Position numbers and translations under genes: made by a program. From assembly GCA_965227095.1 (NCBI GenBank), contig CBDDFL010000001.1:85539-149538 (forward strand): a DNA stretch of 64,000 nucleotides, written 5' to 3'. Position 1 is the stretch's first letter. Each line of letters starts with the position of its first letter. The notes below the pieces were generated by a model that was not told the DNA's origin, did not search any database, and saw only the letters and a program-made list of their open reading frames with translations. The stretch is from Alphaproteobacteria bacterium (GTDB lineage Bacteria > Pseudomonadota > Alphaproteobacteria > JANQMY01). Shown here one piece after another: positions 8,209-27,077 of this stretch.

Positions 8209-9015
8209 ATGAGATCATCTGTCTTGAAGCTCGTCGAGCGCGACGATTTTAAGAACCTCGTCACCCTGGTCGTGGTGATCAACGCCGTCACCTTGGGATT
8301 GGAAACCTGGCCCTTTGCCATGAACCGCATCGGCGGTCTACTGCGTATTTTGGACACACTGGCAATCTCTATCTTCGTTGTCGAGATCGGCCTCAAACTG
8401 TTCGCCTATCGCTTGAGCTTCTTCCGGTCCGGATGGAATGTGTTTGACTTTGTCATTGTGGGCGTTGCGCTTGTGCCGTCCGCCGGCGCGTTTTCCGTGC
8501 TGCGTACCTTACGGATTTTGAGGGCCCTGCGCTTATTATCCGTAGTGCCCCAAATGCGCGCGGTTGTGGGCGCGCTGCTGGGCGCGGTGCCGGGCATGGG
8601 TGCGATCGTCGCGGTGTTGTTGTTGGTGTTTTACATTGCCGCCGTCATGGCAACGAAATTGTTCGCCGCAACGTTTCCGGATTGGTTCGGCAGCGTCCCC
8701 TCTTCCATGTACACGCTGTTCCAAATCATGACGCTGGAAAGCTGGTCCATGGGGATTGTCCGCCCTGTGATGGACGTACACCCCTGGTCCTGGGTGTTCT
8801 TTGTCCCCTTCATTATCGTCACCAGTTTCGCCGTTTTGAATCTGTTCATCGCCTTGATTGTGGATTCCATGCAAGCCATGCACGCCTTCGAGGACAAAGA
8901 AGATGCCGATAAGAAAGAGGCCGTCGCCCATCGCGAGCGAGAGGCCCTGATGGCGGAACTGCGCGCCGTTCGGGCGGAATTGGCGGAACTCCGCGATACC
9001 TTAAAGAATGCCTAG
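8209..9015 (+). CDS. Bacterial voltage-gated sodium channel (BacNav, NavAb-like)
   Basis: Six TM segments, S4 voltage sensor RTLRILRALRLL, selectivity filter FQIMTLESWSMGIVRPVM (TLESWSM as in NavAb/NavMs), C-terminal coiled-coil. Start set at the internal ATG 8209 giving a 269-aa protein. Confidence 0.85.
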   Translation: MRSSVLKLVERDDFKNLVTLVVVINAVTLGLETWPFAMNRIGGLLRILDTLAISIFVVEIGLKLFAYRLSFFRSGWNVFDFVIVGVALVPSAGAFSVLRTLRILRALRLLSVVPQMRAVVGALLGAVPGMGAIVAVLLLVFYIAAVMATKLFAATFPDWFGSVPSSMYTLFQIMTLESWSMGIVRPVMDVHPWSWVFFVPFIIVTSFAVLNLFIALIVDSMQAMHAFEDKEDADKKEAVAHREREALMAELRAVRAELAELRDTLKNA

Positions 9016-9094
9016 ATAAAGGCGTTGATCTAGATCATCGCTGGCAGGCGGCGCGGTCTTCTAAAACAGGCTTGTTAGCTATAGGAGAAGAGAA

Positions 9095-9313
9095 ATGGTT
9101 GGAACAACCGAACTTGTAAGGGGGCATGTGGATGCGACGCTAAAAGCTGCCGACGAACACAAAATCCCCCATGACAGCGTGGCCCGCGCCATGATGTCCC
9201 TGGCGATTGAGATTTTTCTCAAGGAACGGTCTCCGGATGACGTCAAAAGCGAACTGGAATATATGATCAGCAACGTGGTGAGCGACGAAGACCAAGAATT
9301 TATGCGGCCCTAA
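9095..9313 (+). CDS. small hypothetical protein (72 aa)
   Basis: Preceded by an AGGAGAAG Shine-Dalgarno; acidic small ORF; no family recognised; 3' end overlaps the convergent LysR gene by 14 nt. Confidence 0.35.
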   Translation: MVGTTELVRGHVDATLKAADEHKIPHDSVARAMMSLAIEIFLKERSPDDVKSELEYMISNVVSDEDQEFMRP

Positions 9314-10181
9314 GCCGGAAGTTTTCGGTCAAGTGATCCAGAAACACACGCACCTTCAACGGTAAAAACGCCCGGTGGGCGTAGAGTGCCCGAATGGTGA
9401 GGGTCCGCTGGGCCCCACCAAACGGCAGTTGGACCAAGCGCTTGGCGCGCACATCCGTCGCCACAAAGAAATCAGGCAAAAAGGCAATCCCGGCACCCTC
9501 AAGGGCCAGGCGCCTCAACCCATCACCACTTGAGCACCGCACGGCCCACGCCGGGACGAACCCTCGGCCGGACATTTCCCAGTCCGTTATGCGCGTGCCT
9601 TGCGCGAAGACCAAGCAGCGATGCTGCGTCAGGTCCCGCTTTGAGGCGGGTGTGCCGTACTTCTTCACGTAAGCAGGGCTCGCGAAATAGCCATGCCGCG
9701 TCTCATCTATGGCGCGGCCAATCAGATTGCTTTCCATATCGCCGCCGACCCGGATGGCCACATCAATGCCCTCTTCCACCAGATCCACAAATCGGTCCGT
9801 GAGGTCCAGTTCAAGGCGCAATTGAGGAAAAGCGTCCAAGAAATCAGGCAACAACGGCGCAATCGCGAATTGGCCATAGGAGACCGGCGCGCTTATCCGC
9901 AACACCCCGTGCGGTTTTGCCGATTGTTCGGCAAGCGCGTCTTCAGTGGTGGCGATCTGTTCGAGCACGCTGCGCGCATGGTCTAGATACAGACGCCCTG
10001 CTTCCGTCAAACTGTTTCGCCGCGTGGTACGATTGAGAAGACGCGTCCCAAGATGGTCTTCCAGTGACGCAATCTGTTTGCTCACAACCGGCTTTGACAG
10101 GTTCAGCTTGCGGCCTGCGGCGGCGAAGCCACCTTCCTCTTCGACCGCCACAAACGTCTTCATGGCGCGCAAAACATCCAT
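9300..10181 (-). CDS. LysR-family transcriptional regulator
   Basis: MDVLRAMKTFVAVEEEGGFAAAGRKLNLSKPVVSKQI... wHTH plus LysR substrate-binding domain. Start chosen at the MD... codon (10181); the ORF extends to 10211. Confidence 0.85.
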   Translation of the reverse strand: MDVLRAMKTFVAVEEEGGFAAAGRKLNLSKPVVSKQIASLEDHLGTRLLNRTTRRNSLTEAGRLYLDHARSVLEQIATTEDALAEQSAKPHGVLRISAPVSYGQFAIAPLLPDFLDAFPQLRLELDLTDRFVDLVEEGIDVAIRVGGDMESNLIGRAIDETRHGYFASPAYVKKYGTPASKRDLTQHRCLVFAQGTRITDWEMSGRGFVPAWAVRCSSGDGLRRLALEGAGIAFLPDFFVATDVRAKRLVQLPFGGAQRTLTIRALYAHRAFLPLKVRVFLDHLTENFRLRAA

Positions 10182-10477
10182 CAGTTTGTTTCCCTTTGAC
10201 AAACAAAACACAGCAAATACTTCCCATTGTTACTCCATCCGCGAATCCATTGCCATTTGGGGGCGTTTCCGCGTTAAGATATAGCGTCACAGCAGCGATT
10301 CTTTGCAAAACACTCGGTTTCGCGAGATCCGCAGTGACTTGACGGGCGATAAGAAAAACAAAAATGCCCGTGGGGGACAGTGATGGACATTCGAATTGAT
10401 TTCACACTAGTGGAACGTATCGCCGAAGGACCTGCTTCGGTCATTTGGTGTACGCGCATCTCTAACAGAAAGACATT

Positions 10478-11260
10478 ATGACCGATCTCTTATTGACTGA
10501 CATTCAAGACGGCATCGCCACACTGACCATCAACCGGCCGGAAAAGAAAAACGCCATGACCTATGCGATGCTCATGGAGTTTACGGAACTTGTCGGCACA
10601 CTCGGGCAAAATCCGGATGTCCGTGTTCTGATTATTACCGGCACGCAAGGGGCATTTTGTGCCGGAACCGACCTTGCGGATCTCGCGACCGTTCCCGGCA
10701 AAGAACGCGGGCTCCGAGGAAGCGCTGAAGAAAAACACCGGTGGTGGCCCATTGTGGAATGCCCCGTTCCGGTCATCGCGGCCATTGATGGTCCCGCCGT
10801 TGGCATGGGGGCCGAATTTTCCAGCCAATGCGACATTCGATTGGCGTCTTCCAATGCCCGTTTTGCTTGGAACTTCGCACAGCGAGGATTGGTGCCTGAT
10901 ACCGGCGCCGGATCTTGGCTACTGCCTCGCTTGATCGGGCATTCAAATGCCTTGCGTCTGCTGTACACGGCCGACTTCATCTCCGCCGAAGAAGCGCTTG
11001 ATCTTGGTTACCTTCACCAAGTTCTTCCGTCCGAAGACCTCTTGCCGGCGGCCAACGCGCTGGCCCAGAAAATGTTGCAAAGCTCGCCCTTTTCGTTACG
11101 CCGCATCAAATCCCTCGTCTACGAAGGCATGGGCAGTCACGTGGACGATCATATGCAGCGCCATACGCAAGCCATGTCGGAATGTTTCAAAAGTGATGAT
11201 CACGCTGAAGGCGTCGCCTCCTTCTTGGAACGCCGCCCCGCCAAATTCTCCGGCACCTAG
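10478..11260 (+). CDS. enoyl-CoA hydratase/isomerase (crotonase family)
   Basis: ITINRPEKKNAM..., GAFCAGTDL, VIAAIDGPAVGMG motifs; divergent from LysR. Confidence 0.85.
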   Translation: MTDLLLTDIQDGIATLTINRPEKKNAMTYAMLMEFTELVGTLGQNPDVRVLIITGTQGAFCAGTDLADLATVPGKERGLRGSAEEKHRWWPIVECPVPVIAAIDGPAVGMGAEFSSQCDIRLASSNARFAWNFAQRGLVPDTGAGSWLLPRLIGHSNALRLLYTADFISAEEALDLGYLHQVLPSEDLLPAANALAQKMLQSSPFSLRRIKSLVYEGMGSHVDDHMQRHTQAMSECFKSDDHAEGVASFLERRPAKFSGT

Positions 11261-11296
11261 ATCGATTTTGCCTTCTGCCGCTCAGGATACCAGACA

Positions 11297-13168
11297 ATGA
11301 CACGACATCTCCGCGAGACCTTTTTTCTATCAACGCTGTGCGCTGCTCTGGGTGCTTTGTCTGTTCTGACTGTGGCACCGGTGCAGGCAAACCATATCTT
11401 CCTCAGCACAACAATGTGTACCAAGGCGGACAATCGCGACCCACATACGTTAGAAACGGTTTACGCGCGGCCTGACCAAGCCGCCCCCTGCCGGGTGTAC
11501 CATACAAAACAAGGCCTACGCCGCCAGGTGGGCAGCGGCAACAACACCCCCCCTGGGGCCAAGAGTTGCGAATCTATCGAAAAGAACATTCTCAACAATC
11601 TCAAGGTCGGCGGTTATCAGTGCACGAATAATGTAAGCGCCGCCGGAGAAGGCCCTCATCACGATGTCTCGTCCTTGGTCGGGCGCACAGCAGCAGACCA
11701 TGGGCGCTATGCGGTCCTTATTGATGCCTTCAAAACGGAGGACGATGCGCAAATTTTCGCCGCCGGCATTAAGCGCATGCTGCCGCTTGTTCCTGTTCAT
11801 ATCCGCAAACTTACACAAAGTGGCCTGCCCTTTTCCGTTTATGCGGGCGCCGAGGCCTCAGAAGATGGGGCACGCGCTTTAGTCGAGAAAATAGGGGCGG
11901 CCGCATCCCCCGACGGACAGGTGCTCGATCTGTTCGCCCCCTTTGGCAGCAAAATTGCGGCGGACTGGCAACGATATGCCGTGGCTTCTTGTTTCCATCA
12001 GGGGCACGAAACACAGCGCGCCATGGCCCATTGCTCCGGTTTGGTCGTGGATGCAACACAGCTGACCTCGTGCCTAAATGGCGGATTGTGCAGGCCGCCA
12101 CAACTTGCCCCGATTTCGGGCACGCCCCTTAGCTCGGTGCCGGAACGAGCCCTGATCGAACAACCTTGGATCGGCGACCAAATTGCCGCCTGTGACGCAA
12201 ACGCCGAAGATGGAAACGTCACGGAATGCGGTATCAACCTGATGCTATCCGCGGATCAGCGCAAAATGCTCAGCTGCAGCCGCAGCTCGGAAACAGAAGC
12301 CGACGCGCTGGCCTGTATGGCGGGTCCGCGTCTTGGTCCGACCGAAAAGAAAATGCTCACCTGCCTACAGAACAATGACGGCACGGCGCCCATGTCCACG
12401 TGCCTCATGACCGATTATGCCGCCGCCGACAGCCGCGCGGTAACCACATGTTTCGACAACCGGACAACGGAAACCTTTGCCTCCTGTATCGCAACAAATG
12501 TCAGTGCCGTGACCGATCAGCGCGTTACCGAGTGCGCCCAAAAATCAGACAACGATCCTATCGCAACCGGTTTGTGTGCGGCGGAATTCTACCTCACGGC
12601 CCGTCAACGGCAGACTCTTGAGTGTTGGTCGCAAACGTCGTCGCTGACGGCTTTTGGTGTCTGTACATTGGGAAGCGATTTAGGCTTTTCGGCCTCTGAT
12701 CAGCTTGTCGCAACCTGTGCCGCCACATCGAAAGGCGACATTCACACCTTTGCGATGTGCGCCGGAGGCAGCCTGACCTTACGGGAAATGAAAGTATGTT
12801 CTGAAACCCCCGAAGATGTGCGCGCCGCCTGTTATCAAAGCGACAGCGCCATGACGGCGTTTTTGGACAGCACGCCGAAAGACCCGAATGCCGGTTTGAA
12901 GCCCACAAGCAAAATCATGGAGCAACGGGTGTCTGTGCTTGGGACCCCTGCCGTTCAAGAAAAAATCGAGCAGGTGGCTCAGGAAGAGCCATTGGTTGAC
13001 ACGGAAGCAACCGGCGCGCTACAGGCGGACCCCGCAATGGGGCCCGTGTTGGACGACAGTGCACCGCCTCCCCTGGTAGAGGTGCCCAACCCTCAGACCG
13101 AAATACCAAACGAGGTCACGCCGCCTCCAACAGTCGCAGAGGATGTTTTCCATCAACCATCCCCATAA
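11297..13168 (+). CDS. Secreted protein with SPOR-like domain followed by about 13 Cys-containing short repeats and a Pro-rich tail
   Basis: Signal peptide MTRHLRETFFLSTLCAALGALSVLTVAPVQA. Region YAVLIDAFKTEDDAQIFAAGIKRML...FSVYAGAEASEDGARAL resembles SPOR. Repeats of the form (M/V)(L/T)xC every about 12-14 aa (MLSCSRS, MLTCLQN, MSTCLMT, VTTCFDN, FASCIAT, VTECAQK, TLECWSQ, FGVCTLG, VATCAAT, FAMCAGG, MKVCSET). C-terminal PPPLVEVPNPQTEIPNEVTPPP. Confidence 0.7.
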   Translation: MTRHLRETFFLSTLCAALGALSVLTVAPVQANHIFLSTTMCTKADNRDPHTLETVYARPDQAAPCRVYHTKQGLRRQVGSGNNTPPGAKSCESIEKNILNNLKVGGYQCTNNVSAAGEGPHHDVSSLVGRTAADHGRYAVLIDAFKTEDDAQIFAAGIKRMLPLVPVHIRKLTQSGLPFSVYAGAEASEDGARALVEKIGAAASPDGQVLDLFAPFGSKIAADWQRYAVASCFHQGHETQRAMAHCSGLVVDATQLTSCLNGGLCRPPQLAPISGTPLSSVPERALIEQPWIGDQIAACDANAEDGNVTECGINLMLSADQRKMLSCSRSSETEADALACMAGPRLGPTEKKMLTCLQNNDGTAPMSTCLMTDYAAADSRAVTTCFDNRTTETFASCIATNVSAVTDQRVTECAQKSDNDPIATGLCAAEFYLTARQRQTLECWSQTSSLTAFGVCTLGSDLGFSASDQLVATCAATSKGDIHTFAMCAGGSLTLREMKVCSETPEDVRAACYQSDSAMTAFLDSTPKDPNAGLKPTSKIMEQRVSVLGTPAVQEKIEQVAQEEPLVDTEATGALQADPAMGPVLDDSAPPPLVEVPNPQTEIPNEVTPPPTVAEDVFHQPSP

Positions 13169-13367
13169 AGGGCGGATAGACGGAATACCCCACCAAGGCC
13201 TGAAGGTCCGGAGATAGGCCACGCACTGTTTCCTTGGACAACTCCAGCAAATAGTTTTCCTGTTGGCGCATATAGGCCTCGCAATATTGATGCGTCACAC
13301 CGAAACGCGGAGCCGTGGACATGTTTTCACCGCCGCCGTGCCATGTGGTGCCGAGAAAGAAGATCAC
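13116..13367 (-). pseudogene. Possible C-terminal remnant of a PhyH-family dioxygenase
   Basis: 83-aa ORF beginning FFLGTTWHGGGENMS (resembles the xFHxxTxHGSGxNxS region of phytanoyl-CoA dioxygenases); no upstream remainder present. Confidence 0.3.
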
Positions 13368-13455
13368 GGAACCGGCAGAAAGATGGCATGCCGGTAGCCC
13401 TCGACAGGCACATCTTTCGATTGAATAAAACGATTAGCCACACCATAATGTTGGC

Positions 13456-13869
13456 ATGAGCCGCCTTGTGGAAATCGCGACCTTCTATGACCCCGAAGAA
13501 GCCTATTGCGCCCAAGCGGCAGTGCGATCCGGGGGGTGCTATAGTATTCTGTATAATGAACACCATTTAGGTGTCGCGCCGGCCCTGCGCATCGGCCTAG
13601 AAGGGTTTCGATTGATTGTCCTGGAACAAGACGCCGCGGACGTGCGCAACGCCCTAAACGGGTACATGGATGACGCTGTCGCGGAAATTCAGAACGCACC
13701 ACTTCCGGAGACCGGCCGGACAAAACGAAAAAACTGGTTTTGGTTTCCGGTCGCCCTGGCAACCGCCGTTCCGTTTCTGCCATCCTACAGCTCACGAAAC
13801 GTTCTTATCGGCCAGATACTGGTGTCTCTGCCATTCTATTTCATCATACTGGCCAGCCTGGCCTCTTAA
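13456..13869 (+). CDS. hypothetical membrane protein (DUF2007-like N-terminal domain + C-terminal TM)
   Basis: N-terminal VEIATFYDPEEAYCAQAAV...GFRLIVLEQDA pattern and C-terminal hydrophobic helices. Confidence 0.5.
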   Translation: MSRLVEIATFYDPEEAYCAQAAVRSGGCYSILYNEHHLGVAPALRIGLEGFRLIVLEQDAADVRNALNGYMDDAVAEIQNAPLPETGRTKRKNWFWFPVALATAVPFLPSYSSRNVLIGQILVSLPFYFIILASLAS

Positions 13870-13940
13870 CGCCATCTGATATTGCAGTTCTTCTCTACTT
13901 CGCCTAAAGTGATGCCAAACAGAATGTTGGAGGCGAGACA

Positions 13941-15005
13941 ATGACGACCACACAGCTGCCCGGACGCTTGGGCAACCCAGATAGCACCTTTGAAACAGAC
14001 AGCCGCGCCGATCCGCGGATCGTGGCTGCGGTTGAATTGATGGGTGGATTTGGTAATGGCGTCGAACCCATTGGGCCGAATGCGTCTTACGAAGAGGCTT
14101 TGGCCTATTGCACCGCTTTCGAAGAAAGCGCCGATGCGGGCAATGAGGCCTTGCGGGCCGCGCTGCCGGACTGGCCCCACATCATCTCCCGCACGGAAAC
14201 CATTAAAGGTGTGGATGGCAATGACATAAAGCTTTTCATCCACCATCCGCGCGATCAGGACGGGCCTCTTCCCTGCATTTACCACACCCATGGCGGCGGC
14301 ATGGTGGTGATGAGCGCGGAAGATCCTGGCTTCATCCGCATACGAAATGATCTTGCGAGTCACGGCCATGTGGTTGTTGGCGTGGAGTTCCGCAACGGGG
14401 GCGGTCGTCTGGGCGCTCACCCCTTTCCCGCCGGCCTCAACGATTGCGCCAGCGGCCTGCAATGGGTGCATGAAAACGCTAAGGACCTAGGCGTCGGCAA
14501 GATCACGATCGCGGGCGAATCCGGCGGCGGCAATTTGGCAATCGCGACCACAATGAAAGCGAAGCAAGAAGGCTGGCTCGACATGATAAGCGGTGTCTAT
14601 GCCATGTGCCCCTTTATTTGCGGCGATTATGCCAGCCCGCCGGCAGAACTGACCTCGCTCACCGAAAACAATGGCTATATGCTGGACACAAAGCAAATGG
14701 CCGCTCTGGCCTACGTGTACGATCCGTCGGGGGACAACAAGAACAATCCAATGGCATGGCCGCTTTCCGCGGCTCCACAAGAGTTGGCGGGCTTGCCCCC
14801 TCATATCATTTCCGTCAATGAACTGGACCCTCTGCGTGATGAAGGTCTTGCCTTTTTCCGCAAATTGCTGGCAGCGGGTGTGCCCGCGATGGCGCGGACG
14901 GCGATGGGCACCCCCCATGCGGGCGATCAAATGTTCGCCGACGTGGTGCCTGACGCTTATAGAGATTTATTGGGATCTATTTCGGGGTTTTCTAAGCGCG
15001 TTTAG
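13941..15005 (+). CDS. alpha/beta-hydrolase fold-3 esterase/lipase (HSL family)
   Basis: HTHGGGMVV (HGGG oxyanion motif), GESGGGNLA (GxSxG), downstream DPLRDEG and His. Confidence 0.85.
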   Translation: MTTTQLPGRLGNPDSTFETDSRADPRIVAAVELMGGFGNGVEPIGPNASYEEALAYCTAFEESADAGNEALRAALPDWPHIISRTETIKGVDGNDIKLFIHHPRDQDGPLPCIYHTHGGGMVVMSAEDPGFIRIRNDLASHGHVVVGVEFRNGGGRLGAHPFPAGLNDCASGLQWVHENAKDLGVGKITIAGESGGGNLAIATTMKAKQEGWLDMISGVYAMCPFICGDYASPPAELTSLTENNGYMLDTKQMAALAYVYDPSGDNKNNPMAWPLSAAPQELAGLPPHIISVNELDPLRDEGLAFFRKLLAAGVPAMARTAMGTPHAGDQMFADVVPDAYRDLLGSISGFSKRV

Positions 15006-15208
15006 AAAAACTATTCTTAAGTCGCAAAAGCAATACTTGAAAATGCGCCATTTTTTACCAATTCACCTTCAATGAAACGGTTGGCGTTAACATAAAAAAC
15101 AGAATTATGCCCTTAGAAGCGCCCTTTACTCTATAAATACTTTACTTTGAGAAGCTGATCGGAAATAGAATACCCGTTATAACGCGTAAGAGTTCGATCG
15201 GTTCCCAA

Positions 15209-15460
15209 ATGACACGTAAACCGCTAGCTAAGGTCCTGGTGCTGGGAATTGATTCCGGCGAGCCGAGCATGGTCACCCGCTATGCTGCCGAAGGATTGCT
15301 GCCCAATATTCAACGCTTGCAGAACCGCTCCGTTTGGGGGCGCGTTGCAAATCCAAAAGGGTTCGAATCCAGCGCTGTTTGGCCCACCTTTCAAACGGCA
15401 AAACGGCCCGGCAATATGGGGCAGTATGAGGGCTTGCGGTATTTCGATCCGCAAACGTAC
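15209..15460 (+). pseudogene. Alkaline-phosphatase/nucleotide-pyrophosphatase-family paralog, 5' part (interrupted by IS)
   Basis: MTRKPLAKVLVLGIDSGEPSMV...YEGLRYFDPQT aligns with residues 1-84 of the intact paralog at 18531. The reading frame runs into the IS inverted repeat. Confidence 0.8.
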
Positions 15461-17137
15461 CAGACCGTGTGAAAACGGCGGCTTGGGATTCCTGTTGCGG
15501 CGTTTGTGGAGTATGCTGAGGCATGAGATACATGACCGGAACACCACGTTCGCAAGCGTTGCTTTTGCCGGAGCGCGTTGAAGACTACGTTGGCCCAAAC
15601 AATCCAGTGCGGTTTATCGATGCCTTTGTTGACGGGCTTGACCTCGCTGCAGCTGGGTTCGCGCGGGCGATGCCCAAGTCGACCGGCCGACCAGGTTACG
15701 ATCCGGCTGACCTGCTCAAACTCTACATCTACGGTTACTTAAACCGGGTGCGTTCAAGCCGCCGTCTGCAGGCCGAAGCGCACCGCAATCTTGAGGTGAT
15801 CTGGCTGATGCGGCATCTAAAGCCGGATTTCAAAACAATAGCCGATTTCCGGAAGGATAATCGATCAGCATTTCGGAACGTCTTCCGGCAGTTTGTTCGG
15901 CTGTGCCGAGACCTTGATCTTTTCGGGCGCGAGCTGCTGGCTGTGGACGGGACACGGATCAAGGCGGTGAACAACGGTGGCAAGAATTTCACCAAAGCTT
16001 CGCTCAAGCGCGATTTGGCTCTGATCGACAAGCGATTGGAACATTATCTCACCTCCCTCAACAATGCAGATGCAGAGGATGACGGTAACGCTGATATCGC
16101 GTCGAAGGAGGATATTTCCAAGAAAATCGAAGCTATGAAGGCGCGGCGCGAACGGCTGATCGGCCATCAAAAAGAACTGGAGGAGACCGGCGCGGACCAA
16201 CTGTCTCTGACCGACCCTGACGCCCGCGCCATGGATCGCAACACGCGCGTTGGCGTTGGCTATAACATCCAGATCGCCGTGGATGTGAAGCACAAGTTGA
16301 TCGCTGAGCAACAAGTTCATTCCAAGGTAAGCGACCTTGGGCTGCTCGCAACGACCGCGGTTGCGGCACGCGAGGCGCTGGATGTTGAGCGCATCAATGT
16401 GGTCGCGGACAAGGGGTATTTCGCGATCGAGGATATCGAGGCCAGCGAAGCAGGGAGCGCCTTTCCAATCGTCCCAAGGCCGCGGCGTGGGGCTGCCGCG
16501 AGTAGAAATTTGTTTGTCAAAGAGCGATTTCAATACGACGCGACGGCAGACCGCTACACCTGCCCCGGCGGTCAGACCCTCCCCCCGAATGGGAAAAAGC
16601 TTTACGTCCGAGATGGTGTTTTCGAGCAGAAATATCGCAACTACCGCGCCTGCAAGCAGTGCCAGCTCAAGCCGCGATGTACCGGAAGTGAGGCTCGAAC
16701 TGTTTCGCGATATGAAAACGAAGAGGTTTTAGAACGTATGGCTGAGCGCCTTGCCGCCCGCCCCGAAGCGCTCGATCAGCGCCGCGAGACCGTCGAGCAC
16801 CCCTTCGGATCCATCAAGCAATGGATGGGTCAAGGCGCGTTTTTGACACGCCGTCTGGATAACGTCCGTGGCGAGTTCAGCCTAACGGCGCTCGCCTACA
16901 ACATCCGCCGGGCGATCACATTGGTCGGAGTGCCGACCCTAATCCAAGCAGCACGGGTGTAGGCAACCAACCTGCGACTGTTTCGGCGCCAGAAAATGCG
17001 CGGCTGGCCCTGTCACGCCCTCAATAGCCTCTGCTGGCCGACGTTAGGCCACTCAAAGCCCATTTCCACACGATATATCCAAAGACCGATCGTTCTCCGT
17101 ATTCGCGGCCAGAAGGCCGCCGTTTTCACACGGTCTG
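15461..17137 (+). mobile_element. Intact IS1182-like (IS5-family) insertion sequence, 1677 bp
   Basis: 22-bp perfect terminal IRs CAGACCGTGTGAAAACGGCGGC (15461-15482 and rc 17116-17137), flanked by GTAC on both sides (4-bp TSD). Single transposase ORF. Confidence 0.85.
15523..16962 (+). CDS. IS1182-group (IS5-family) DDE transposase
   Basis: N-terminal ...PNNPVRFIDAFVDGLDL...GRPGYDPADLLKLYIYGYLNRVRSSRRLQ and C-terminal Cys cluster CPGGQTL...CKQCQLKPRC typical of IS1182-group transposases. Confidence 0.85.
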   Translation: MRYMTGTPRSQALLLPERVEDYVGPNNPVRFIDAFVDGLDLAAAGFARAMPKSTGRPGYDPADLLKLYIYGYLNRVRSSRRLQAEAHRNLEVIWLMRHLKPDFKTIADFRKDNRSAFRNVFRQFVRLCRDLDLFGRELLAVDGTRIKAVNNGGKNFTKASLKRDLALIDKRLEHYLTSLNNADAEDDGNADIASKEDISKKIEAMKARRERLIGHQKELEETGADQLSLTDPDARAMDRNTRVGVGYNIQIAVDVKHKLIAEQQVHSKVSDLGLLATTAVAAREALDVERINVVADKGYFAIEDIEASEAGSAFPIVPRPRRGAAASRNLFVKERFQYDATADRYTCPGGQTLPPNGKKLYVRDGVFEQKYRNYRACKQCQLKPRCTGSEARTVSRYENEEVLERMAERLAARPEALDQRRETVEHPFGSIKQWMGQGAFLTRRLDNVRGEFSLTALAYNIRRAITLVGVPTLIQAARV

Positions 17138-18461
17138 GTACGATTTCGACCACTTCACCGAAGATCAAGTGCCGGAAGACTATCTATGGCAGCGTTTGTC
17201 GCGTGCCGGTAAGCGTTGCTTCGTATTCGATGCGCCTTATGCGCTGCTTGACCGATCCATCAACGGTACGATGATTGTAGATTGGGGTCCTCATTTGCCC
17301 GCCAAAGGCTATGGCCAGGCTGATTTTCAAACGCAACCGCCCGAAGTGGCGGAAGAAGTGCTCGCGGTTGGCGGTCCCGACCCGTTCTGCGGTGAAATGT
17401 GTGATGACCTGTCTATCGCGTCAGCCGCGGACTATCGGGAGTTCGTCGATCAGCATATTGACCGCATACAGAGAAAAGCAAAGATCGCGAGTTACTTTCT
17501 GAAAAAGGGTGATTGGGATTACTTTCAGACTGTCTTCCCCGATATGCATTGTGTGGGACATCACGTGTGGCATATCAGCGATGAGAACCACCCTGACCAC
17601 GATCCGGACTTCGCGAAAAAGACCGGAGATTTGTACAAAGATGCGTTCATCGCCATTGACCAGGCCATCGGTGATATCATGGCCAATGTGGATGACCGGT
17701 CGCTCACCCTGCTCTATTTCAGTCATGGCATGCGCCAACAACGCACGGGCACGGGAGTGTTGGATCGGGCGCTGGCCTTGATTGACGGTCAGACCCTTGA
17801 TCTTGGCGGCGCGACCACTAAAACCCGCCTTAAGAAATTATGGCAAAAGACACCCGCTGAGTTTCGGTCTTTAGTGGCGCCCTTGAGACGCAAATTCCGC
17901 GGTGCTCTGGAAGTTTCCACCCTGCTTGAGAACCGGGACGACCGGCGTTTTTTCGAAGTGCATAACAATCGGCGCACGGGGGGTGTTCGCCTCAATCTGA
18001 TCGGCCGGGAAGCCAACGGAAAAGTAGCCCCGGAAGAATTCGACATGGTGCTGGATGAGATTATTGCGGAACTCTCCAAAATAACCAATGTGGAGTCCGG
18101 AACGCCGTTGGTGGAGGAATTTATCAAAACCCGCGACGTGCATGACGGCCATTGCATTGATCGGTTGCCGGACCTGCTGGTGCGCTGGAATCAGCACCAT
18201 CCGATCCGCGCGGTGACGTCGCCCACAATTGGCAGGATTGATCAGAACTTCGAAAACACGCGTAGCGGGGATCATTCCTCTTACGGACTATTCGCGGCGC
18301 AAGGCGGCGGCATTGAACGCACGCCCCTCAACCATGATGTGAATGCGGAAGACTTCGGCCTTACATTGATGGAAATATTGGGCGTGTCGCCTGAAGACAC
18401 TGATGGCGATGCCATCGAACAATTGCTGGTATTCGACCAGAAACTCGAATTGGCCAGTTGA
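17138..18461 (+). pseudogene. Alkaline-phosphatase-family paralog, 3' part (resumes after IS)
   Basis: In-frame YDFDHFTEDQVPEDYLWQRLSRAGKRCFVFDAPY... aligns with the intact paralog from residue 85 onward; GDHSSYGLFAAQG near the C-terminus. Confidence 0.8.
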
Positions 18462-18530
18462 TAAAATCTGCCCCCCGTTAAACCAACTCCGAATAGAAAA
18501 CCTATTCGGTAACAGAGTGTTGGGGACTGA

Positions 18531-20105
18531 ATGACTGAACCGCGTACACGTATACTGGTATTGGGCATTGATTCCGCGGAGCCACGACTTGTGCATGAAA
18601 TGGCGGGTGCGGGGCGTCTGCCCCATGTCGCCTCCTTGCTTAAAGGCGGCCTAACAGGGGCGGTTCAGAACCCTCGCGGTTTCGAATCCGGCACGGTGTG
18701 GCAGAGCTTTCATACGGGCAAAGAACCCGGCGGCCATCCCATGTATGATGGGCTACGCTATTTCAATCCGCAAACCTATGGTTTTTCGTTTCTCGAACAA
18801 TCAGAGGTCGGCGCCGATCTCATCTGGGAACATTTGTCAAAGCACGGCAAACGGTGCGCGGTGATTGACGCGCCTTATTGTCAGATCGGCCAAACCATCA
18901 ATGGCATTCTGGTTGCGGACTATGCGGTGCATGACGCCGCCCTCGGCGACAATGTGATCACCTTTGCAACCGACCCCGCCCCTCTGGCGCAAGAGCTGCT
19001 GGACCTGGTAGGTCCCGACCCCACGGGGGGCATTCAAAGTGACATTCCGCTGGTGGAAACACTGCAAGACCATATCGACTTCCGCGATAAATATTTCGCC
19101 CGCGTCGAGAAAAAGGGGCGCCTCATCAACCACATCCTGCAAAAAGAGCCGTGGGACTATGTAGAGGCCGTGTTTACCGAACCCCACAGTGTGGGGCATC
19201 GGTTGTGGCATGTGGCCAATCCCGACCACGACCAATATCAGCGGCATCTGCATGAGGCCCTGGGAGATCCCATCCGCGATCTTTATGAACTGACCGACAA
19301 GGCGATCGGCGAGGTTCTAGCCCAGTTGGATGACCGTACGCTGGTGATTTTCTACATAAGCCACGGCATGGAAAACCATTACACCGGCGTTGGTCTTCTG
19401 GATGAAGCCTTGGTTCAACTTGAACGTGGCGTGCCGGCCACCGGAGACCGGTCGCTCAAGGAAAAATTGCGCGGCGCGTGGCGGTCGATCCCGTCTGAAA
19501 CCCGGGGGCGCTTGCGTCCCTTCAAGAAGTTTTTCCACGGTGCGCTGTCTCCGCGCGAACAAGATTTCGCGGGCAACCGCCGTGACCGTCGCTTCTTCGA
19601 AGTCTATGCGAATTACAGAACCGGCGGTGTACGGATTAATCTGCAAGGGCGGGAAGCCAATGGATTGGTCGCCCCAGAAGACTATGATGCGCTGCTCACG
19701 GAACTGACAACCGATCTGCTGGCGCTGAAGAATGCGGATACGGGCGACAATTTGGTGGAAGAAGTGCTGCGCCCGCGCGACCTTTACGACGGCGCCTATG
19801 TAGACTATCTGCCTGACCTCTTGGTCTCGTTCGACCGGCGGGCGCCGATCAACCGTATCTCGTCAGATAAAATTGGTCTGATTGAACGCGCCTTTCCACC
19901 CGCCCGGTCCGGCGATCATTCCCGTTACGGACTGTTTGCGGCCACGGGCGCTGGCATCCCGCCCCGGAAACTCAACGCTACCGTCAACGCCGTGGATTTC
20001 TTTCCGACAGTGTGCCAAGCATTGGGTGTGGCAGCCCCAGGCTTCCCGGGAAAACCGATTGAGCATCTGCCCGCCGCCGCCCGCATGCTCGAAGACGCAC
20101 GTTAA
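18531..20105 (+). CDS. Alkaline phosphatase-like / type I phosphodiesterase-nucleotide pyrophosphatase family protein
   Basis: ILVLGIDSAEP...LPHVASLLKGG N-terminus (PF01663-like), ...ARSGDHSRYGLFAATG metal-site region; 524 aa; tandem paralog of the IS-disrupted gene. Confidence 0.75.
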   Translation: MTEPRTRILVLGIDSAEPRLVHEMAGAGRLPHVASLLKGGLTGAVQNPRGFESGTVWQSFHTGKEPGGHPMYDGLRYFNPQTYGFSFLEQSEVGADLIWEHLSKHGKRCAVIDAPYCQIGQTINGILVADYAVHDAALGDNVITFATDPAPLAQELLDLVGPDPTGGIQSDIPLVETLQDHIDFRDKYFARVEKKGRLINHILQKEPWDYVEAVFTEPHSVGHRLWHVANPDHDQYQRHLHEALGDPIRDLYELTDKAIGEVLAQLDDRTLVIFYISHGMENHYTGVGLLDEALVQLERGVPATGDRSLKEKLRGAWRSIPSETRGRLRPFKKFFHGALSPREQDFAGNRRDRRFFEVYANYRTGGVRINLQGREANGLVAPEDYDALLTELTTDLLALKNADTGDNLVEEVLRPRDLYDGAYVDYLPDLLVSFDRRAPINRISSDKIGLIERAFPPARSGDHSRYGLFAATGAGIPPRKLNATVNAVDFFPTVCQALGVAAPGFPGKPIEHLPAAARMLEDAR

Positions 20106-20214
20106 CACCGCGGTAAGCTTTGCCCGCGTTAACGCTAGCGGTTTATTAGGATTAATGCGCCATAGTCGCCCCAGTTTTACTGGTATTTCAAAGTAGTTCT
20201 CAGGCGGGCGTTTC

Positions 20215-21051
20215 ATGAAACCTGGCGTATACAAAGTATCCGATCTTCCGGCAGAGTTGGTCAGCACTCTTGATCTTAAAGGCGATTATGCGCTGTACGA
20301 CAAAGCACGCGGCGGCAGTTACCATTTCTTCGAAGTAGAACTTCTCAAGCGCATTGAAAGCGAACGGCAACTGATTGAAATCATTCGCTCGCCTGTGCAT
20401 GGGCATTTTCTGGTGCTGGATGGCGAGGTGCAAATCGCCAGCGCCGACGAACACGAATATCATGGTGCCTTTGCCCGCGAATCCCTTGCCTTCCTGGAAG
20501 AGCGCAACGCTAAACCCACCTACAAAGCCATGGTGTTCGGCGGCGGCGACGGCTGCCTGGCCCGCGAAATGCTGGATACGGATAAATTTAATTCCATCGA
20601 AATCATCGATTGGGACAAGGATGTGCTGGGCCTTTTCAGCGATGGCGAGATGGCGGATGTGTTTAACACCAAGCGGGTGTTTGCATCCGACACGGTCAAG
20701 GTCTACAGCGAGGACTTTCGGGATTATCAATTCGAAGCCTTGGGCGACAGTGTCGACATCCTTTATTTCGATTTGACCGACGAAGCGGTGGACGACCCCG
20801 CCTGGTCCGGCCAAATGGTCGACCTGCTCAACTACTTCATCGCCGACCAAAAGCAAGAATTGGTTCTGGCGGTGCAACTGGGGTCGCGCTTCTGTCACAC
20901 GCCGACGCAGAATTTTGAGCTGTTGCTCGGCGCGCTGAAAGACAAATTCAGCGATCAGAAAATCAAACTGACCCACAAGGAAATTTGCTTCTACATCCCG
21001 TCCTATTCCACCTATTGGGCGCTGGGATTTGTAGGCATTTCCTACGACTAG
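20215..21051 (+). CDS. Spermidine-synthase-like (polyamine aminopropyltransferase fold) protein
   Basis: FLVLDGEVQ and MVFGGGDGCLAREM motifs correspond to the SpeE substrate and SAM-binding signatures. The antisense ORF 20200-20976 was judged spurious. Confidence 0.6.
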   Translation: MKPGVYKVSDLPAELVSTLDLKGDYALYDKARGGSYHFFEVELLKRIESERQLIEIIRSPVHGHFLVLDGEVQIASADEHEYHGAFARESLAFLEERNAKPTYKAMVFGGGDGCLAREMLDTDKFNSIEIIDWDKDVLGLFSDGEMADVFNTKRVFASDTVKVYSEDFRDYQFEALGDSVDILYFDLTDEAVDDPAWSGQMVDLLNYFIADQKQELVLAVQLGSRFCHTPTQNFELLLGALKDKFSDQKIKLTHKEICFYIPSYSTYWALGFVGISYD

Positions 21052-21072
21052 AGTTCAAGGGGCACGGCGCCC

Positions 21073-21810
21073 CTACACGGACACTTTTTGATCGGCGCCC
21101 GTCTCTTTGGGGAGGGGCGCCATCTTCGTTTCAAGCGCCGAAATCTGGTCCCGAAACCGTCGCGCCGTGTCGTCATCGGCATAGGCCAGAAGATTGCACA
21201 GCCCCGTATGTTCGACGCGGGTCACAAAGTCCGCATCGCTCAACGCCCCCCGCGCCCACAAAATGGCCGTGCCGAACCAGCCCACCGTCAATTGAGAAGC
21301 GAGAATGTGCGGGTCGAAGCGCGCCGCCAGCGCCCCTTGTTCCAAGGCGCGGATCAAGGCGGTTTCCGCAAGTCCGGCGCCAAATTCCATGAACTCCAAA
21401 GGGCGGCTGGGGGAGCCCAAGGGGCGGTCCTTGTCGCCCGCCCACATGGGATGAAAGAGCGCCTTGCGCGCAATGCATTTTTCCGCCGCCACCGTCATGA
21501 TGGTCAGCACCTGCTCGATGGGGTCTTGATCTTCGGGGAGCGCCGTCAGTTCTTCTTCCAGGGTCGAAAAGGCGCGGTCTTCCAGCACGGCGGCGATGGC
21601 TTCCTTGCCGCCGCCATAGAGGTTGTAAAGCGTCTTGACGCTCAGCCCCACTTCCTGGGCCAGCGCCCGCATGGTGAAAGCGCTCAAGGAATCGCGCATG
21701 ATCAACCGCTCCGCCGAATCCAAGATTCGCTGGCGCCTGGCCTCCATATTGAGTGCGCGTTGATCCATCCCGACCACGGTCGATCCCATTGAGTCCCCGA
21801 TCTTTGGCAT
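21073..21810 (-). CDS. TetR-family transcriptional regulator
   Basis: HTH RQRILDSAERLIMRDSLSAFTMRALAQEVGLSVKTLYNLYG; divergent from the CYP153 gene. The true start is probably an internal Met (MDQRAL or MEARRQ). Confidence 0.8.
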   Translation of the reverse strand: MPKIGDSMGSTVVGMDQRALNMEARRQRILDSAERLIMRDSLSAFTMRALAQEVGLSVKTLYNLYGGGKEAIAAVLEDRAFSTLEEELTALPEDQDPIEQVLTIMTVAAEKCIARKALFHPMWAGDKDRPLGSPSRPLEFMEFGAGLAETALIRALEQGALAARFDPHILASQLTVGWFGTAILWARGALSDADFVTRVEHTGLCNLLAYADDDTARRFRDQISALETKMAPLPKETGADQKVSV

Positions 21811-21854
21811 CTAGCAAGTTGGCGCCGCAATCCGCAAGTGCCATTCACATTTTG

Positions 21855-21899
21855 CTTGACTACAACGCCGTTGTAACTTACAACATTGTTGTAGTCAAG
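21855..21899. promoter_or_regulatory. Nested perfect palindrome, likely TetR operator in tetR/CYP153 divergent promoter
   Basis: Outer IR CTTGACTACAAC (21855-21866) / GTTGTAGTCAAG (21888-21899); inner IR GTTGTAA-C-TTACAAC (21870-21884). Confidence 0.6.
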
Positions 21900-21917
21900 A
21901 TTTTCCCGGAGATCTCC

Positions 21918-23192
21918 ATGAGTCAGGCCGCCCTGAAACCGTCCACAACAGACACTTTCGACCCAAACGCGATCGCGCTGGAGGACATCGATCTGACGGA
22001 CGCGAATTACTATTTCAACCAACAGCATTGGGCCCTGTTCGAACGCCTGCGCAATGAAGATCCGGTGCATTTCTATGACCATGAAGAATTTGGCCGCATC
22101 TGGTCGGTGACCCGCTATGCGGACATCATGGCGGTGGACACCAACCACAAAACGTTCTCCTCCGAACCGTCCATCTTTATCGTCGATGGGCCCACGGGCG
22201 ACGATGAAAACTTCGACCCGGAAACCTTCATCGCCATGGACCCGCCAAAACACGACATTCAGCGCAAAGCGGTGACCCCGGCCGTTTCGCCCTCTGCGTT
22301 GATGGATTTGGAACCCCTGATCCGCGAGCGTGTGTGCAAGGTGCTCGACGGCTTGCCGGTGGGCGAAACCTTCAACTGGGTGGACCGGGTGTCGATCGAA
22401 ATCACCACCCAAATGTTGGCCACCCTGTTCGATTTCCCCTTCGAAGACCGCTACAAGCTGACCTTCTGGTCAGACCTCACAACCGCCAACGAAGAAGTGT
22501 TGGAAGAAATGGGGCTCACGGAAGAAGAACGCCGCGGACACCTGTATGAATGCTTGGAAACTTTCGGCAAGCTTTACGCCGAACGCGCGGCTCTTCCGCC
22601 TGCGAATGATTTCATCTCGCTGATGGCTCATAACGAGCATATGAAAAGCCTGGACCCCATGAACTTGCTCGGCAATCTGATGCTGCTGATCGTGGGCGGC
22701 AACGACACCACGCGGAATTCCATGTCCGGCGGCGTGCTGGCCCTGCATAACCATCCGGACCAATTCGCGAAGCTGAAGGCCGACCCGTCGGTCATCCCGA
22801 ACATGGTGTCGGAAATCATTCGTTGGCAGACGCCGCTGGCCTATATGCGCCGCACTGCCACGGAAGATGTGGAACTGGGCGGCAAGACCATCAAAAAAGG
22901 CGACCGGGTATTGATGTGGTACATCTCCGGCAACCGCGACGAGCGGGACATTGACCGCCCCAATGAATTCCTGATCGACCGGGAAGGCGCCCGCCGCCAC
23001 CTATCCTTTGGCTTCGGCATTCACCGCTGCATGGGCAACCGTGTGGGCGAAATGCAGGTGCGCATTCTGTGGGAAGAAATTCTCAACCGCTTCGACCGGG
23101 TGGAAGTGGTGGGCACGCCCGTGCGCACTTTCTCGAACTTCGTGATGGGCTTCACCGACCTACCTGTCGTCGTGCACCCGAAGACGAGCTAG
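21918..23192 (+). CDS. Cytochrome P450, CYP153 family (alkane/alkyl omega-hydroxylase-like)
   Basis: CYP153 signatures LLIVGGNDTTRNSMSGG, EIIRWQTPLAYMRRTA, heme loop FGFGIHRCMGNRVGE. Confidence 0.9.
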   Translation: MSQAALKPSTTDTFDPNAIALEDIDLTDANYYFNQQHWALFERLRNEDPVHFYDHEEFGRIWSVTRYADIMAVDTNHKTFSSEPSIFIVDGPTGDDENFDPETFIAMDPPKHDIQRKAVTPAVSPSALMDLEPLIRERVCKVLDGLPVGETFNWVDRVSIEITTQMLATLFDFPFEDRYKLTFWSDLTTANEEVLEEMGLTEEERRGHLYECLETFGKLYAERAALPPANDFISLMAHNEHMKSLDPMNLLGNLMLLIVGGNDTTRNSMSGGVLALHNHPDQFAKLKADPSVIPNMVSEIIRWQTPLAYMRRTATEDVELGGKTIKKGDRVLMWYISGNRDERDIDRPNEFLIDREGARRHLSFGFGIHRCMGNRVGEMQVRILWEEILNRFDRVEVVGTPVRTFSNFVMGFTDLPVVVHPKTS

Positions 23193-23204
23193 GCGATCAG
23201 CCTT

Positions 23205-23232
23205 GACGGACGGGGTTTGCAACCCCGTTTAC
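23205..23232. repeat. REP-like palindrome (degenerate copy) immediately after CYP153 stop
   Basis: gacggacggggtttgcaaccccgtttac (compare consensus TTGACGGACGGGGTTACAAACCCCGTCCGTCAA). Confidence 0.5.
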
Positions 23233-23238
23233 CTCTGT

Positions 23239-23637
23239 TTATTTCTCACCAGGTTCACCTTGCGCGGTGGAGAGGAGTCTGACCAACAGTCCAAGCAAGG
23301 TCAAAGAGATTAGACCGTAGAGGCCGACGATTGACCAGCCATTTTCATTCGCCCCGGCATACTGTCCCTGGATCGCCATGACCGTGCTCAAAGACGTTGC
23401 GATCAGAAGGGATGACACAAACCCCATACGCAGGTTTCTATCCTCAGTTCGACGGGCGAACCATGCGCACATGCCCATGCCGATGAGTGTCGAGCCCCAG
23501 AACCGATAGATGACGATCCCCATGGCGCTCAATTGAACATCGTAATTTGCCAACATATCTTCGGGGAACAGAACACATAGAGCGCCAGAGACAATGGTTA
23601 CTACGGCCAAAATTGAAAGTACCAATTTATACGTCAC
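23239..23637 (-). CDS. hypothetical small membrane protein (4 predicted TM)
   Basis: 132-aa hydrophobic ORF; no family recognised. Confidence 0.5.
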   Translation of the reverse strand: MTYKLVLSILAVVTIVSGALCVLFPEDMLANYDVQLSAMGIVIYRFWGSTLIGMGMCAWFARRTEDRNLRMGFVSSLLIATSLSTVMAIQGQYAGANENGWSIVGLYGLISLTLLGLLVRLLSTAQGEPGEK

Positions 23638-23676
23638 GGCCTTTTCCTTTTTTTTAGGGTCTAATGATGTCGAGTG

Positions 23677-24984
23677 TTAGGCTGACAAGCTCAGCCCCAC
23701 TTGCTTTTTGACCTGGGCCAAAGCAGCGCGATAGGTGTCGATATGCACATAATTTGCATGTCGTTGAGAGTCGACATAACGGTGGCCAGCCGTGAGGTCG
23801 GGCTTATGCGTCTTTTTCATTTTTGAAAGCTTTTCTTTCAAGGGCGATTCGGCATTGGCCGCGGCATCTGCCGCGATTAACTCAGCCATCTGATCAAAAT
23901 TTGCGTATGCCGCCGAGGAGAATTCCACAAACCCAAGAAACGCCAAATTGCTGTGCTTTCTGGAAAACATTCCCAAATAAAGATCGGGCCGCCCCTTCTT
24001 TTTGTCTACGTCGGCTGGGTCCAGGAACGGGATGTCGTGTTTGTATCCGGTCGCCGCTATGATGAGATCCACCTGCTCTCTAGACCCGTCAACAAATTCA
24101 ACACAATGGCCATCCAATCTCGCAATGTCCGGTTTAACGACACAATCGCCGTGCCCCACATAGTGCAGAATCTGGGTGTTCATCAACGGATGAGATTGAA
24201 ACAGTTTGTGGTCCGGCTTCGGAAATCCGTATCTCGCAACATTGCCATTCATCAAGTTCAGGATCAACGTGATTGCCGGCGTGGAAATCCAGTCCGGAAG
24301 CTTGGCCCCTTTCCTCGCAAACACATCCGTCGGCTGTCCCATGATGTATTTCGGCACAAAATGATAACCCCTTCGTACGCTGATGAATGTCTGCTTCGCT
24401 GCAAATGCCGCATCACACGCAATGTCTGCGCCGGAATTCCCAGCGCCAACGATCAGCACACGTTTTCCAGCAAACTCCGACGGCGATCGATATGTGATTG
24501 AATGTCGAATTTCTCCGTCAAAATTTCCGGGCCATGAAACTAAGTTAGGTTCCCAAGTCACTCCATTGGCGCAGATCAAATAACGGGCGGTAAGGGTTTC
24601 ACCCTCTTTCGTTTCTAACTTCCATTTCCCCTGACGGTCACGCTTGGCATGGGTAATATGGGTGTTCAGTCTTACGTGTTTGCGTAAATCAAACGTGTCG
24701 GCGAACGACCGGATATAGTCGAGAACAAGTGTGTGATTTGGGTAGTCGGGGTAACCATCGGGCATTGGAAATCCGGGAATTCCCGACAATGACCGAGACG
24801 AAATAAAGTGGGCGGAGTCGTACATCGGCGATCCAGGTGCATCAATGTCCCAAACACCTCCTACGTCAGACCCACGATCAATTAACTGAAACCTTGTGTC
24901 ATATGACTGGAGGTGTTTTGCCAGAATCAATCCGGCAGGGCCCGCACCAACAACCAAAACATCCCATTCTTTCGTCTCATTCAT
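23677..24984 (-). CDS. Flavin-containing monooxygenase (FMO-like, two dinucleotide-binding motifs)
   Basis: VLVVGAGPAGL (FAD) and LIVGAGNSGADIA (NADPH) GxGxxG motifs, FMO-like FxGxxxHS region. Confidence 0.85.
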   Translation of the reverse strand: MNETKEWDVLVVGAGPAGLILAKHLQSYDTRFQLIDRGSDVGGVWDIDAPGSPMYDSAHFISSRSLSGIPGFPMPDGYPDYPNHTLVLDYIRSFADTFDLRKHVRLNTHITHAKRDRQGKWKLETKEGETLTARYLICANGVTWEPNLVSWPGNFDGEIRHSITYRSPSEFAGKRVLIVGAGNSGADIACDAAFAAKQTFISVRRGYHFVPKYIMGQPTDVFARKGAKLPDWISTPAITLILNLMNGNVARYGFPKPDHKLFQSHPLMNTQILHYVGHGDCVVKPDIARLDGHCVEFVDGSREQVDLIIAATGYKHDIPFLDPADVDKKKGRPDLYLGMFSRKHSNLAFLGFVEFSSAAYANFDQMAELIAADAAANAESPLKEKLSKMKKTHKPDLTAGHRYVDSQRHANYVHIDTYRAALAQVKKQVGLSLSA

Positions 24985-25004
24985 TCAAATACCCCCCCTC
25001 TTTC

Positions 25005-25048
25005 GTGACTAGTAGTCACGTTACAAAATACGACTATTAGTCACGTTT
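25005..25048. promoter_or_regulatory. Candidate operator in FMO promoter: palindrome GTGACTAGTAGTCAC plus direct repeat of CTAnTAGTCACGTT
   Basis: gtgactagtagtcac at 25005-25019; ctagtagtcacgtt (25008-25021) and ctattagtcacgtt (25034-25047), 20-60 bp upstream of the FMO start. Confidence 0.45.
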
Positions 25049-25230
25049 TGAGTTTTGTCAAGCGGAACTCCGCATCGGAAACACGCAGACGACAGAAAAG
25101 TTTCGCTGCTCTTTCACCGGATGAGGGAGCCGACCGTTCTCCAAAAGGAAAGTTGGGGTGTTCAAATTAAAGCACGCGGTCGAAACAATGTGCCGCGAGA
25201 ATGTCGGTTGCGCCGTGCTAAGCAGCATTA

Positions 25231-25309
25231 CTCAGCACTCAGCACTCAGCACTCAGCACTCAGCACTCAGCACTCAGCACTCAGCACTCAGCACTCAGCA
25301 CTCAGCACT
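25231..25309. repeat. Heptanucleotide microsatellite (CTCAGCA)x11.3, perfect
   Basis: Direct reading of ctcagca repeated 11 times plus ct, ending at the tetR stop codon (25309-25311); lies in the 324-bp FMO upstream region. Confidence 0.95.
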
Positions 25310-26091: not shown

Positions 26092-26133
26092 TTTCTAACC
26101 CCCAATTCGGAAAATGGGTCTAGTTTCTCTATT

Positions 26134-26170: not shown

Positions 26171-26179
26171 TAAAGCGTC

Positions 26180-27064: not shown

Positions 27065-27077
27065 TGGGAACCAATCC

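Follow-up and report, generated by a model that had tools for sequence, protein, structure and literature searches.

Analysis of a 64,000-nucleotide stretch of the genome of an uncultured alphaproteobacterium (GenBank assembly GCA_965227095.1, contig CBDDFL010000001.1, positions 85,539 to 149,538; hereafter the window, to which all coordinates refer unless another source is named) revealed an insertion sequence (IS) of the IS1182 family lying inside a gene of the alkaline phosphatase (AlkP) superfamily. Taking observation and interpretation together, we consider it very probable (about 0.93) that an autonomous IS1182-family element transposed recently into this gene and split it, with duplication of the tetranucleotide GTAC at the target. 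The knock-out of a gene by an IS is a commonplace event. The added interest of the present case lies in a clean pair of occupied and empty sites and in a sequence-specific, palindromic target with an apparent home on plasmids.

The insertion can be seen directly by comparison with an intact allele. Removal of the element (15461-17137) and of one GTAC in silico restored an open reading frame (ORF) of 1,572 nt, or 523 codons with a single terminal stop, reading ...YFDPQTYDFDHFTEDQ... across the former insertion point. The reconstructed protein is 100% identical to an intact 523-aa protein (P0001) encoded on a public metagenome scaffold, L004. This scaffold is syntenic with the window: positions 8301-15460 correspond to L004 1-7160 and positions 17138-23186 to L004 7157-13205, both without gaps, and the two alignments overlap by exactly GTAC. 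The empty site thus holds one GTAC and the occupied site two, which proves the boundaries of the IS and identifies GTAC as a true target-site duplication (TSD). Over the interval 12581-23186 without the IS (about 8.9 kb) only two mismatches to L004 were found, at 14614 and 21456, and none of them falls in the split gene. Since the near-identical strain has an empty site and its flanks differ by only these two single nucleotide polymorphisms (SNPs), the insertion is younger than the split of the two strains (about 2 SNPs per 9 kb). Every more distant orthologue (84%, 68%, 67% identity and lower) is intact with about 523 aa, and so is a further close allele (P0180); the uninterrupted gene is therefore the ancestral state. 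A preliminary description of this DNA, made from the sequence alone, had proposed a clean and recent split with GTAC duplication and had recommended a comparison of strains for presence or absence of the insertion; the empty-site allele on L004 bears out both the duplication and the recent date. Occupied and empty sites are thereby documented cleanly in strains that are 99.98% identical.

The complete element comprises 1,677 bp (15461-17137, plus strand), with boundaries given by the break points of the L004 alignment as well as by six 100%-identical copies that have other flanks. It is bordered by a left terminal inverted repeat (IR), CAGACCGTGTGAAAACGGCGGC (15461-15482, plus strand), and a right one (17116-17137, minus strand), which match each other at 22 of 22 positions, and the GTAC duplications lie immediately outside (15457-15460 and 17138-17141). 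The excision coordinates and the perfect 22-bp repeats proposed earlier are exact. A 27-mer reported with its exact reverse complement exists as well, but the positions assigned to it (15458-15484 and 17113-17139) were 2-3 nt off: CGTACCAGACCGTGTGAAAACGGCGGC occupies 15456-15482 and its reverse complement 17116-17142. Complementarity of the IS itself ends after 22 bases, and the 27-mer owes its other five nucleotides to the TSD and one adjoining base of the flank, which pair because CGTACG is a palindrome. Within the window, and with up to three mismatches allowed, the 22-mer occurred at the two IS ends only, and in 100 shuffled sequences it gave no match. The GC content of the element (about 0.56-0.59) showed no contrast with its flanks in the composition profile.

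On its 5′ side the disrupted gene is left with codons 1-84 (15209-15460, plus strand). The reading frame of this fragment enters the IS and ends at a TGA in the left IR, giving a protein of 87 aa (...PQTY followed by QTV) that is recorded as P0178 on a contig of 3,183,897 bp, evidently the one from which the window comes. The 3′ fragment (17142-18461, plus strand) holds codons 85-523 and the stop; mechanical ORF calling places its start at a GTG at 17169 and yields 430 aa with a match to PF01663. For annotation this means that a single disrupted gene accounts for both 'proteins', of 87 aa and 430 aa, recorded for this genome, each being one half of it. An intact tandem paralog of 524 aa (18531-20105, plus strand), also with PF01663, follows 70 bp downstream and served as a control of collinearity: the reconstructed protein is 42% identical to it over 519 residues with one 2-residue gap, in agreement with the reconstructable, collinear ORF described earlier. 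PF01663 scores were 68.5 bits for the paralog and 33.6 bits for the 3′ fragment (cutoff 23), and the intact allele P0001 also carries the domain. Relatives are named in their source records 'alkaline phosphatase family protein' or 'AlkP superfamily phosphohydrolase/phosphomutase', no solved structure was detected in a sequence search of the PDB with the intact protein, and no NCBIfam model matched it either. With its single PF01663 domain cut in two and no native start on the 439-codon remainder, the disrupted gene is, judged from its sequence, almost certainly a null allele. The intact paralog may provide partial redundancy. A scan of 15000-18700 for promoters and terminators gave fewer matches than shuffled sequence.

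The sole long ORF of the IS is the transposase gene (15523-16962, plus strand), which encodes 479 aa from the ATG at 15523; public records start at the ATG at 15532 and give 476 aa (P0190). Accordingly, an exact look-up of the 479-aa protein returned no match, and the 476-aa version from the second ATG was matched. The protein contains the Pfam domains DUF772 (PF05598), DDE_Tnp_1 (PF01609) and DDE_Tnp_1_6 (PF13751), each above its gathering score, and it hits the NCBIfam model NF033551 (IS1182 family transposase) with 392.1 bits against a cutoff of 270 over residues 8-466 of 479. It is collinear over its full length with 11 homologues (65-93% identity) and shows no truncation. Residues D142, D296, E425, R421 and K432 are invariant across the 12 aligned sequences, and by their position D142, D296 and E425 are a candidate catalytic triad. 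The profile match, the DDE architecture in a single ORF, the terminal IRs, the short TSD, a feature that varies within the family, and a length within the family range of about 1.3-2 kb all agree with the IS1182 family. Domain content, the NF033551 score, the end-to-end collinearity and the invariant D142/D296/E425 lead us to regard the element, on the evidence of its sequence, as an intact autonomous IS1182-family IS, and the earlier labels 'IS1182-like' and 'intact' for element and transposase were well chosen. The closest transposases on record are 93%, 91% and 90% identical, some of them plasmid-borne (Pontibrevibacter nitratireducens, Rhodovulum sp. P5), and the DNA of the nearest relatives is 84-90% identical across the full length of the IS; a scan of genome contigs with the 22-mer returned three distant relatives. 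The element would be new within a known IS family, or it may be an isoform that lacks a name.

The exact 476-aa transposase is also encoded on six further contigs (L131-L136) from independent sequencing runs. In all six the full 1,677 bp are 100% identical to the copy in the window, and four contexts of flank and orientation were found besides that of the window. Two contigs (L132 and L133) carry the IS in a hairpin, ...GACCGAACAC-GCAT/IS/GCAT-GTGTTCGGAC..., and a third (L131) has it in the same hairpin in the opposite orientation with GTGC/ATGC flanks. A variant hairpin, ...GACCGAATAC-GCAT/IS/GCAT-GTATTCGGCG..., holds the IS on L135, and in the opposite orientation on L134. The length of one contig carrying the identical element is that of the IS, exactly 1,677 bp, as is typical when an assembler collapses a repeat. 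Since the flanking tetranucleotide differs between identical copies it is not part of the IS. Five independent insertions without divergence over 1.7 kb suggest that the IS is currently active and spreading, and the earlier assessment of the element as probably active gains from these copies.

The insertion point itself appears to follow a target preference. In related elements 4 bp are duplicated at the centre of an imperfect palindrome (for example GCAT, ACAA, CTTG, CAAG, TAAC, GACC or GGCC). A metagenome scan with the terminal 17-mer CAGACCGTGTGAAAACG found at least 120 loci (L011-L130); among the matches listed, with all fetched loci and the window itself included, an IS1182 transposase homologue adjoined the end at 46 loci. 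A flank matrix was built from 32 non-redundant ends, taken from elements whose transposases show 55% identity or more; the window's own flanks were left out. Read from these ends, the half-site has T at -13, C at -11 (27/32), a purine at -10, A at each position from -9 to -6 (29/32 at -8) and a pyrimidine at -5 (31/32). The target consensus of the clade is about C-R-A-A-A-W-Y N4 R-W-T-T-T-Y-G and reaches outwards from the TSD by about 9 bp in both directions. The target in the window, CCGCAAAC-GTAC-GATTTCG, fits the clade half-site on both sides: the left arm ATCCGCAAAC (15448-15456) fits C-R-A-A-A-W-Y, and the right arm GATTTCGAC, from 17142, consists of the first bases of the 3′ gene fragment. 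With the two-sided arm matrix applied along the whole excised window, the actual site came 3rd among 62,297 positions, and we therefore take the insertion point to have been chosen by target preference. The codons for P-Q-T-Y-D-F in the split gene happen to spell a near-consensus target. The consensus given above can be tested, and it concerns one clade of the IS1182 family, itself poorly characterised.

Some further observations were made on these targets and ends. The homologous codons of the paralog (18770-18795) form a potential target, CCGCAAAC-CTAT-GGTTTTTCG, that ranks 22 of 62,297. The 17-mer is found as well at the ends of elements with transposases that share only 35-50% identity with this one, and 86 of the matched ends had no transposase homologue nearby (both among the matches listed). 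The ends without transposase include a numerous group that continues ...TAGCGAGCGAAGGTCAGGCAAGG with unrelated flanks and another group that is preceded by AAGGGGACGG; they could be derivatives resembling MITEs (miniature inverted-repeat transposable elements) or a different class of element. On L002, a metagenome-assembled genome (MAG) of Methylocella that carries a distant relative, positions 2835-5417 contain three end-like sequences that delimit an element of either 1,658 bp or 2,583 bp with CAAG on both sides, which may be a partial tandem or nested structure.

Several points weigh against the proposed recent transposition. The sequences compared, L004 and the Logan contigs, come from metagenome or bulk assemblies, in which consensus or chimeric assembly could mask variation, and the 64-kb window holds only one copy of the IS. 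Mobility is suggested here by comparison of sequences, namely by the identical copies and by the insertion polymorphism between near-identical strains. Furthermore, in some short contigs of distant relatives (a CWWG-flanked subgroup) the element lies between CAAG and CTTG, which misfits a simple direct duplication; we tentatively attribute this to chimeric assembly induced by the repeat or to recombination between copies. Signs of such chimeric flanks in short-read contigs of related ISs are also what could be said for an assembly artefact, in which a multi-copy IS was threaded wrongly into this locus of an organism that really has an intact gene, given that the host is known from assemblies alone and that the intact allele is present in another sample. 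We regard an artefact of this kind as very unlikely, for a mis-join would yield neither a precise 4-bp target duplication nor the 3rd-best target match of 62,297 positions, both junctions are base-perfect, and the 3.18-Mb contig is typical of a long-read assembly.

That the insertion could be old, with the flanking gene a decaying pseudogene that merely looks reconstructable, is extremely improbable. IS-split genes are usually free to decay and no specific support for decay was found in this one, whereas neither the TSD nor the IRs show any imperfection, six copies elsewhere are identical to this IS and the flanks of 8.9 kb contain two SNPs. Decay elsewhere in the gene, which the preliminary description had considered the mark of an older event, is not seen either, the gene having zero nucleotide differences from the intact L004 allele. 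There is next to no room for an element of the IS5 or IS4 family, or for one that contains the GTAC and made no target duplication. IS5, IS4 and IS1182 transposases are related, and the models of the former two are weakly matched; their scores of 59.7 bits (IS5, NF033581, cutoff 140) and 24.9 bits (IS4, cutoff 115) are nevertheless far below those cutoffs, whereas the IS1182 model is clearly exceeded. The palindromic GTAC does stretch the apparent IR to 27 bp, but identical copies are flanked by GCAT, GTGC or ATGC and the empty site retains exactly one GTAC, so that GTAC as a part of the IS, or an IR of 27 bp, is ruled out. A recent insertion of an intact IS1182-family element thus remains the preferred explanation.

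Most of the identical copies, and of the relatives with 84-90% identity, sit in a hairpin that belongs to the backbone of conjugative plasmids. L131, L009 and L010 share as neighbours a relaxase, a small helix-turn-helix (HTH) protein, a 68-aa ORF and a DUF2493/YAcAr protein. Without the IS, this 800-bp region was found in 152 PLSDB plasmids, of which 147 are predicted to be conjugative; nearly all genera listed for them belong to the Rhodobacterales (Sulfitobacter, Phaeobacter, Dinoroseobacter, Roseovarius and others). The IS targets the 4-nt loop of a hairpin whose arms measure about 27 bp and which lies about 235 bp upstream of the HTH/relaxase operon. This one conserved hairpin was struck repeatedly and in both orientations by the IS and its 84-90% relatives, with 4-bp duplications that vary (GCAT, ACAA, GTGC/ATGC). 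It may be a candidate origin of transfer (oriT); a sequence-level definition of oriT for roseobacter plasmids was not found in the literature. The host of the window does not belong to the roseobacters. Its glutaminyl-tRNA synthetase shows 70-74% identity to proteins from MAGs that carry the name Rhodospirillaceae or Rhodospirillales. It is plausible that the IS was delivered by a roseobacter-type conjugative plasmid. The case documents a connection of marine roseobacter conjugative plasmids with the chromosome of an uncultured Rhodospirillales-like bacterium.

Based on these findings the following course of events can be proposed. An IS of 1,677 bp with perfect 22-bp IRs and one DDE transposase gene, probably brought in by a roseobacter-type conjugative plasmid as its vehicle, would have transposed in an uncultured Rhodospirillales-like alphaproteobacterium into a gene of the type I phosphodiesterase/nucleotide pyrophosphatase fold at codon 83/84. 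The transposase would have joined the two 3′ ends of the IS to target strands 4 bp apart, at the centre of the pseudo-palindrome around GTAC, and repair of the gaps would then have duplicated this tetranucleotide. The presumed outcome is an 87-aa N-terminal stub and a 439-codon remainder without native start, next to an intact paralog. A wider and more tentative reading, which we hold to be possible but rather doubtful, is that this IS1182 clade inserts sequence-specifically at palindrome centres with a target of about 22 bp, that its preferred home is the 4-nt loop of the conserved plasmid hairpin upstream of the HTH-protein/relaxase operon (the candidate oriT), and that the insertion into the phosphatase-family gene was an off-target strike on a mimic of that site, with the site in the paralog as a predicted secondary target. 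If true, residence in the hairpin would offer the IS a harmless parking place together with a built-in ride between hosts.

Other differences to L004, as well as further repeats and mobile genes, were found elsewhere in the window. SNP density relative to L004 changes from 145 mismatches in 4.3 kb (8301-12580, about 3.4%) to the two mismatches in about 8.9 kb already described for 12581-23186. This suggests either that a boundary of recombination lies near 12.58 kb, where it would fall in the 623-aa ORF at 11297-13168, or a mosaic metagenome consensus. Segments 23187-26131, which encodes an FMO-like flavin monooxygenase and a TetR regulator, and 26967-30647 are absent from or replaced in the near-identical L004, so that variation of gene content at strain level adjoins the 99.98%-identical block. 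A hairpin repeat, GACGGGGTTTGTAACCCCGTC, resembling repetitive extragenic palindromic (REP) sequences occurs six times within 23209-29139 (at 23209, 26138, 27037, 27700, 28528 and 29119) and had no match in shuffled sequences. Copies of it lie at the edges of the segments that differ between the window and L004/L005, and two inverted copies bracket an ORF at 28560-29111 with a weak match to an IS200-like Y1 transposase (E = 0.0011, below cutoff), an arrangement that looks like a unit of REP sequences and their associated tyrosine transposase (RAYT/REP). A second mobile module is found at 2455-5775 (minus strand), just upstream of the region syntenic with L005. It consists of a Mu-type transposase with rve and Mu-transpos_C domains (549 aa, 4126-5775), TniB (3243-4241) and a TniQ-domain protein (2455-3306), and this tniABQ set is Tn5053/Tn402- or Tn7-like with weak IS481/IS630 matches. 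Adjoining the 3′ end of tniQ, ARAGORN called a permuted tmRNA at 1800-2301. This call is probably a false positive, as it overlaps long ORFs, its tag ends atypically, and a scan of the whole window at Rfam gathering thresholds detected neither a tmRNA nor any other RNA family.

Compared by its published description, ISPse1 from Paracoccus seriniphilus DSM 14827 (GQ868753) is the closest characterised relative of the IS in the window. It belongs to the IS1182 family, has 1,653 bp, IRs of 16/16 and direct repeats of 4 bp, and was caught in a trap plasmid (PMC3281130). As far as that description goes, both elements are alphaproteobacterial with a single transposase ORF, a similar length (1,653 versus 1,677 bp), perfect IRs (16/16 versus 22/22) and 4-bp direct repeats; they differ in that the mobility of ISPse1 was shown by the trap plasmid (PMC3281130), whereas here it is suggested by sequence. 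The closest Paracoccus transposase that we retrieved is only 66-69% identical to the one in the window. Nearer in sequence are two copies of the same clade, on the plasmid of Pontibrevibacter nitratireducens ALG8 (NZ_CP049814) and on pRGUI03 of Rhodovulum sp. P5 (NZ_CP015042). Across all 1,677 bp their nucleotide identity is 85.9% and 84.7%, and their proteins are about 90-93% identical. They have the terminal CAGACCGTGTGAAAA in common, show 4-bp TSDs (GCAT and ACAA) and are labelled IS1182 family transposase by NCBI, but lie in the plasmid hairpin loop beside the relaxase operon and not in a chromosomal gene. With 84-86% nucleotide identity we take them to be distinct ISs by usual ISfinder practice.

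Some members of the IS1182 family have been reported to target palindromes (PMC5678879), with which the target preference described above is in agreement. IS1272 from Staphylococcus was reported to take the place of its target stem-loop without any TSD and to recognise structure, its targets having no sequence similarity (PMC5678879). It resembles the element in the window in its family and in its insertion at inverted-repeat or stem-loop targets, and the model proposed for it has a loop-duplicated pathway that matches the window case (PMC5678879). In contrast to IS1272, the target in the window was kept, 4 bp were duplicated and the arms show a sequence consensus. IS5 elements also encode a DDE transposase, related to this one, duplicate 4 bp of their target and use a short palindromic core (CTAG/YTAR). 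The transposase in the window differs from theirs in scoring below the IS5 cutoff, in its additional C-terminal DDE_Tnp_1_6 domain and in its size of about 480 aa, and its target consensus takes in about 9 bp on either side of the TSD.

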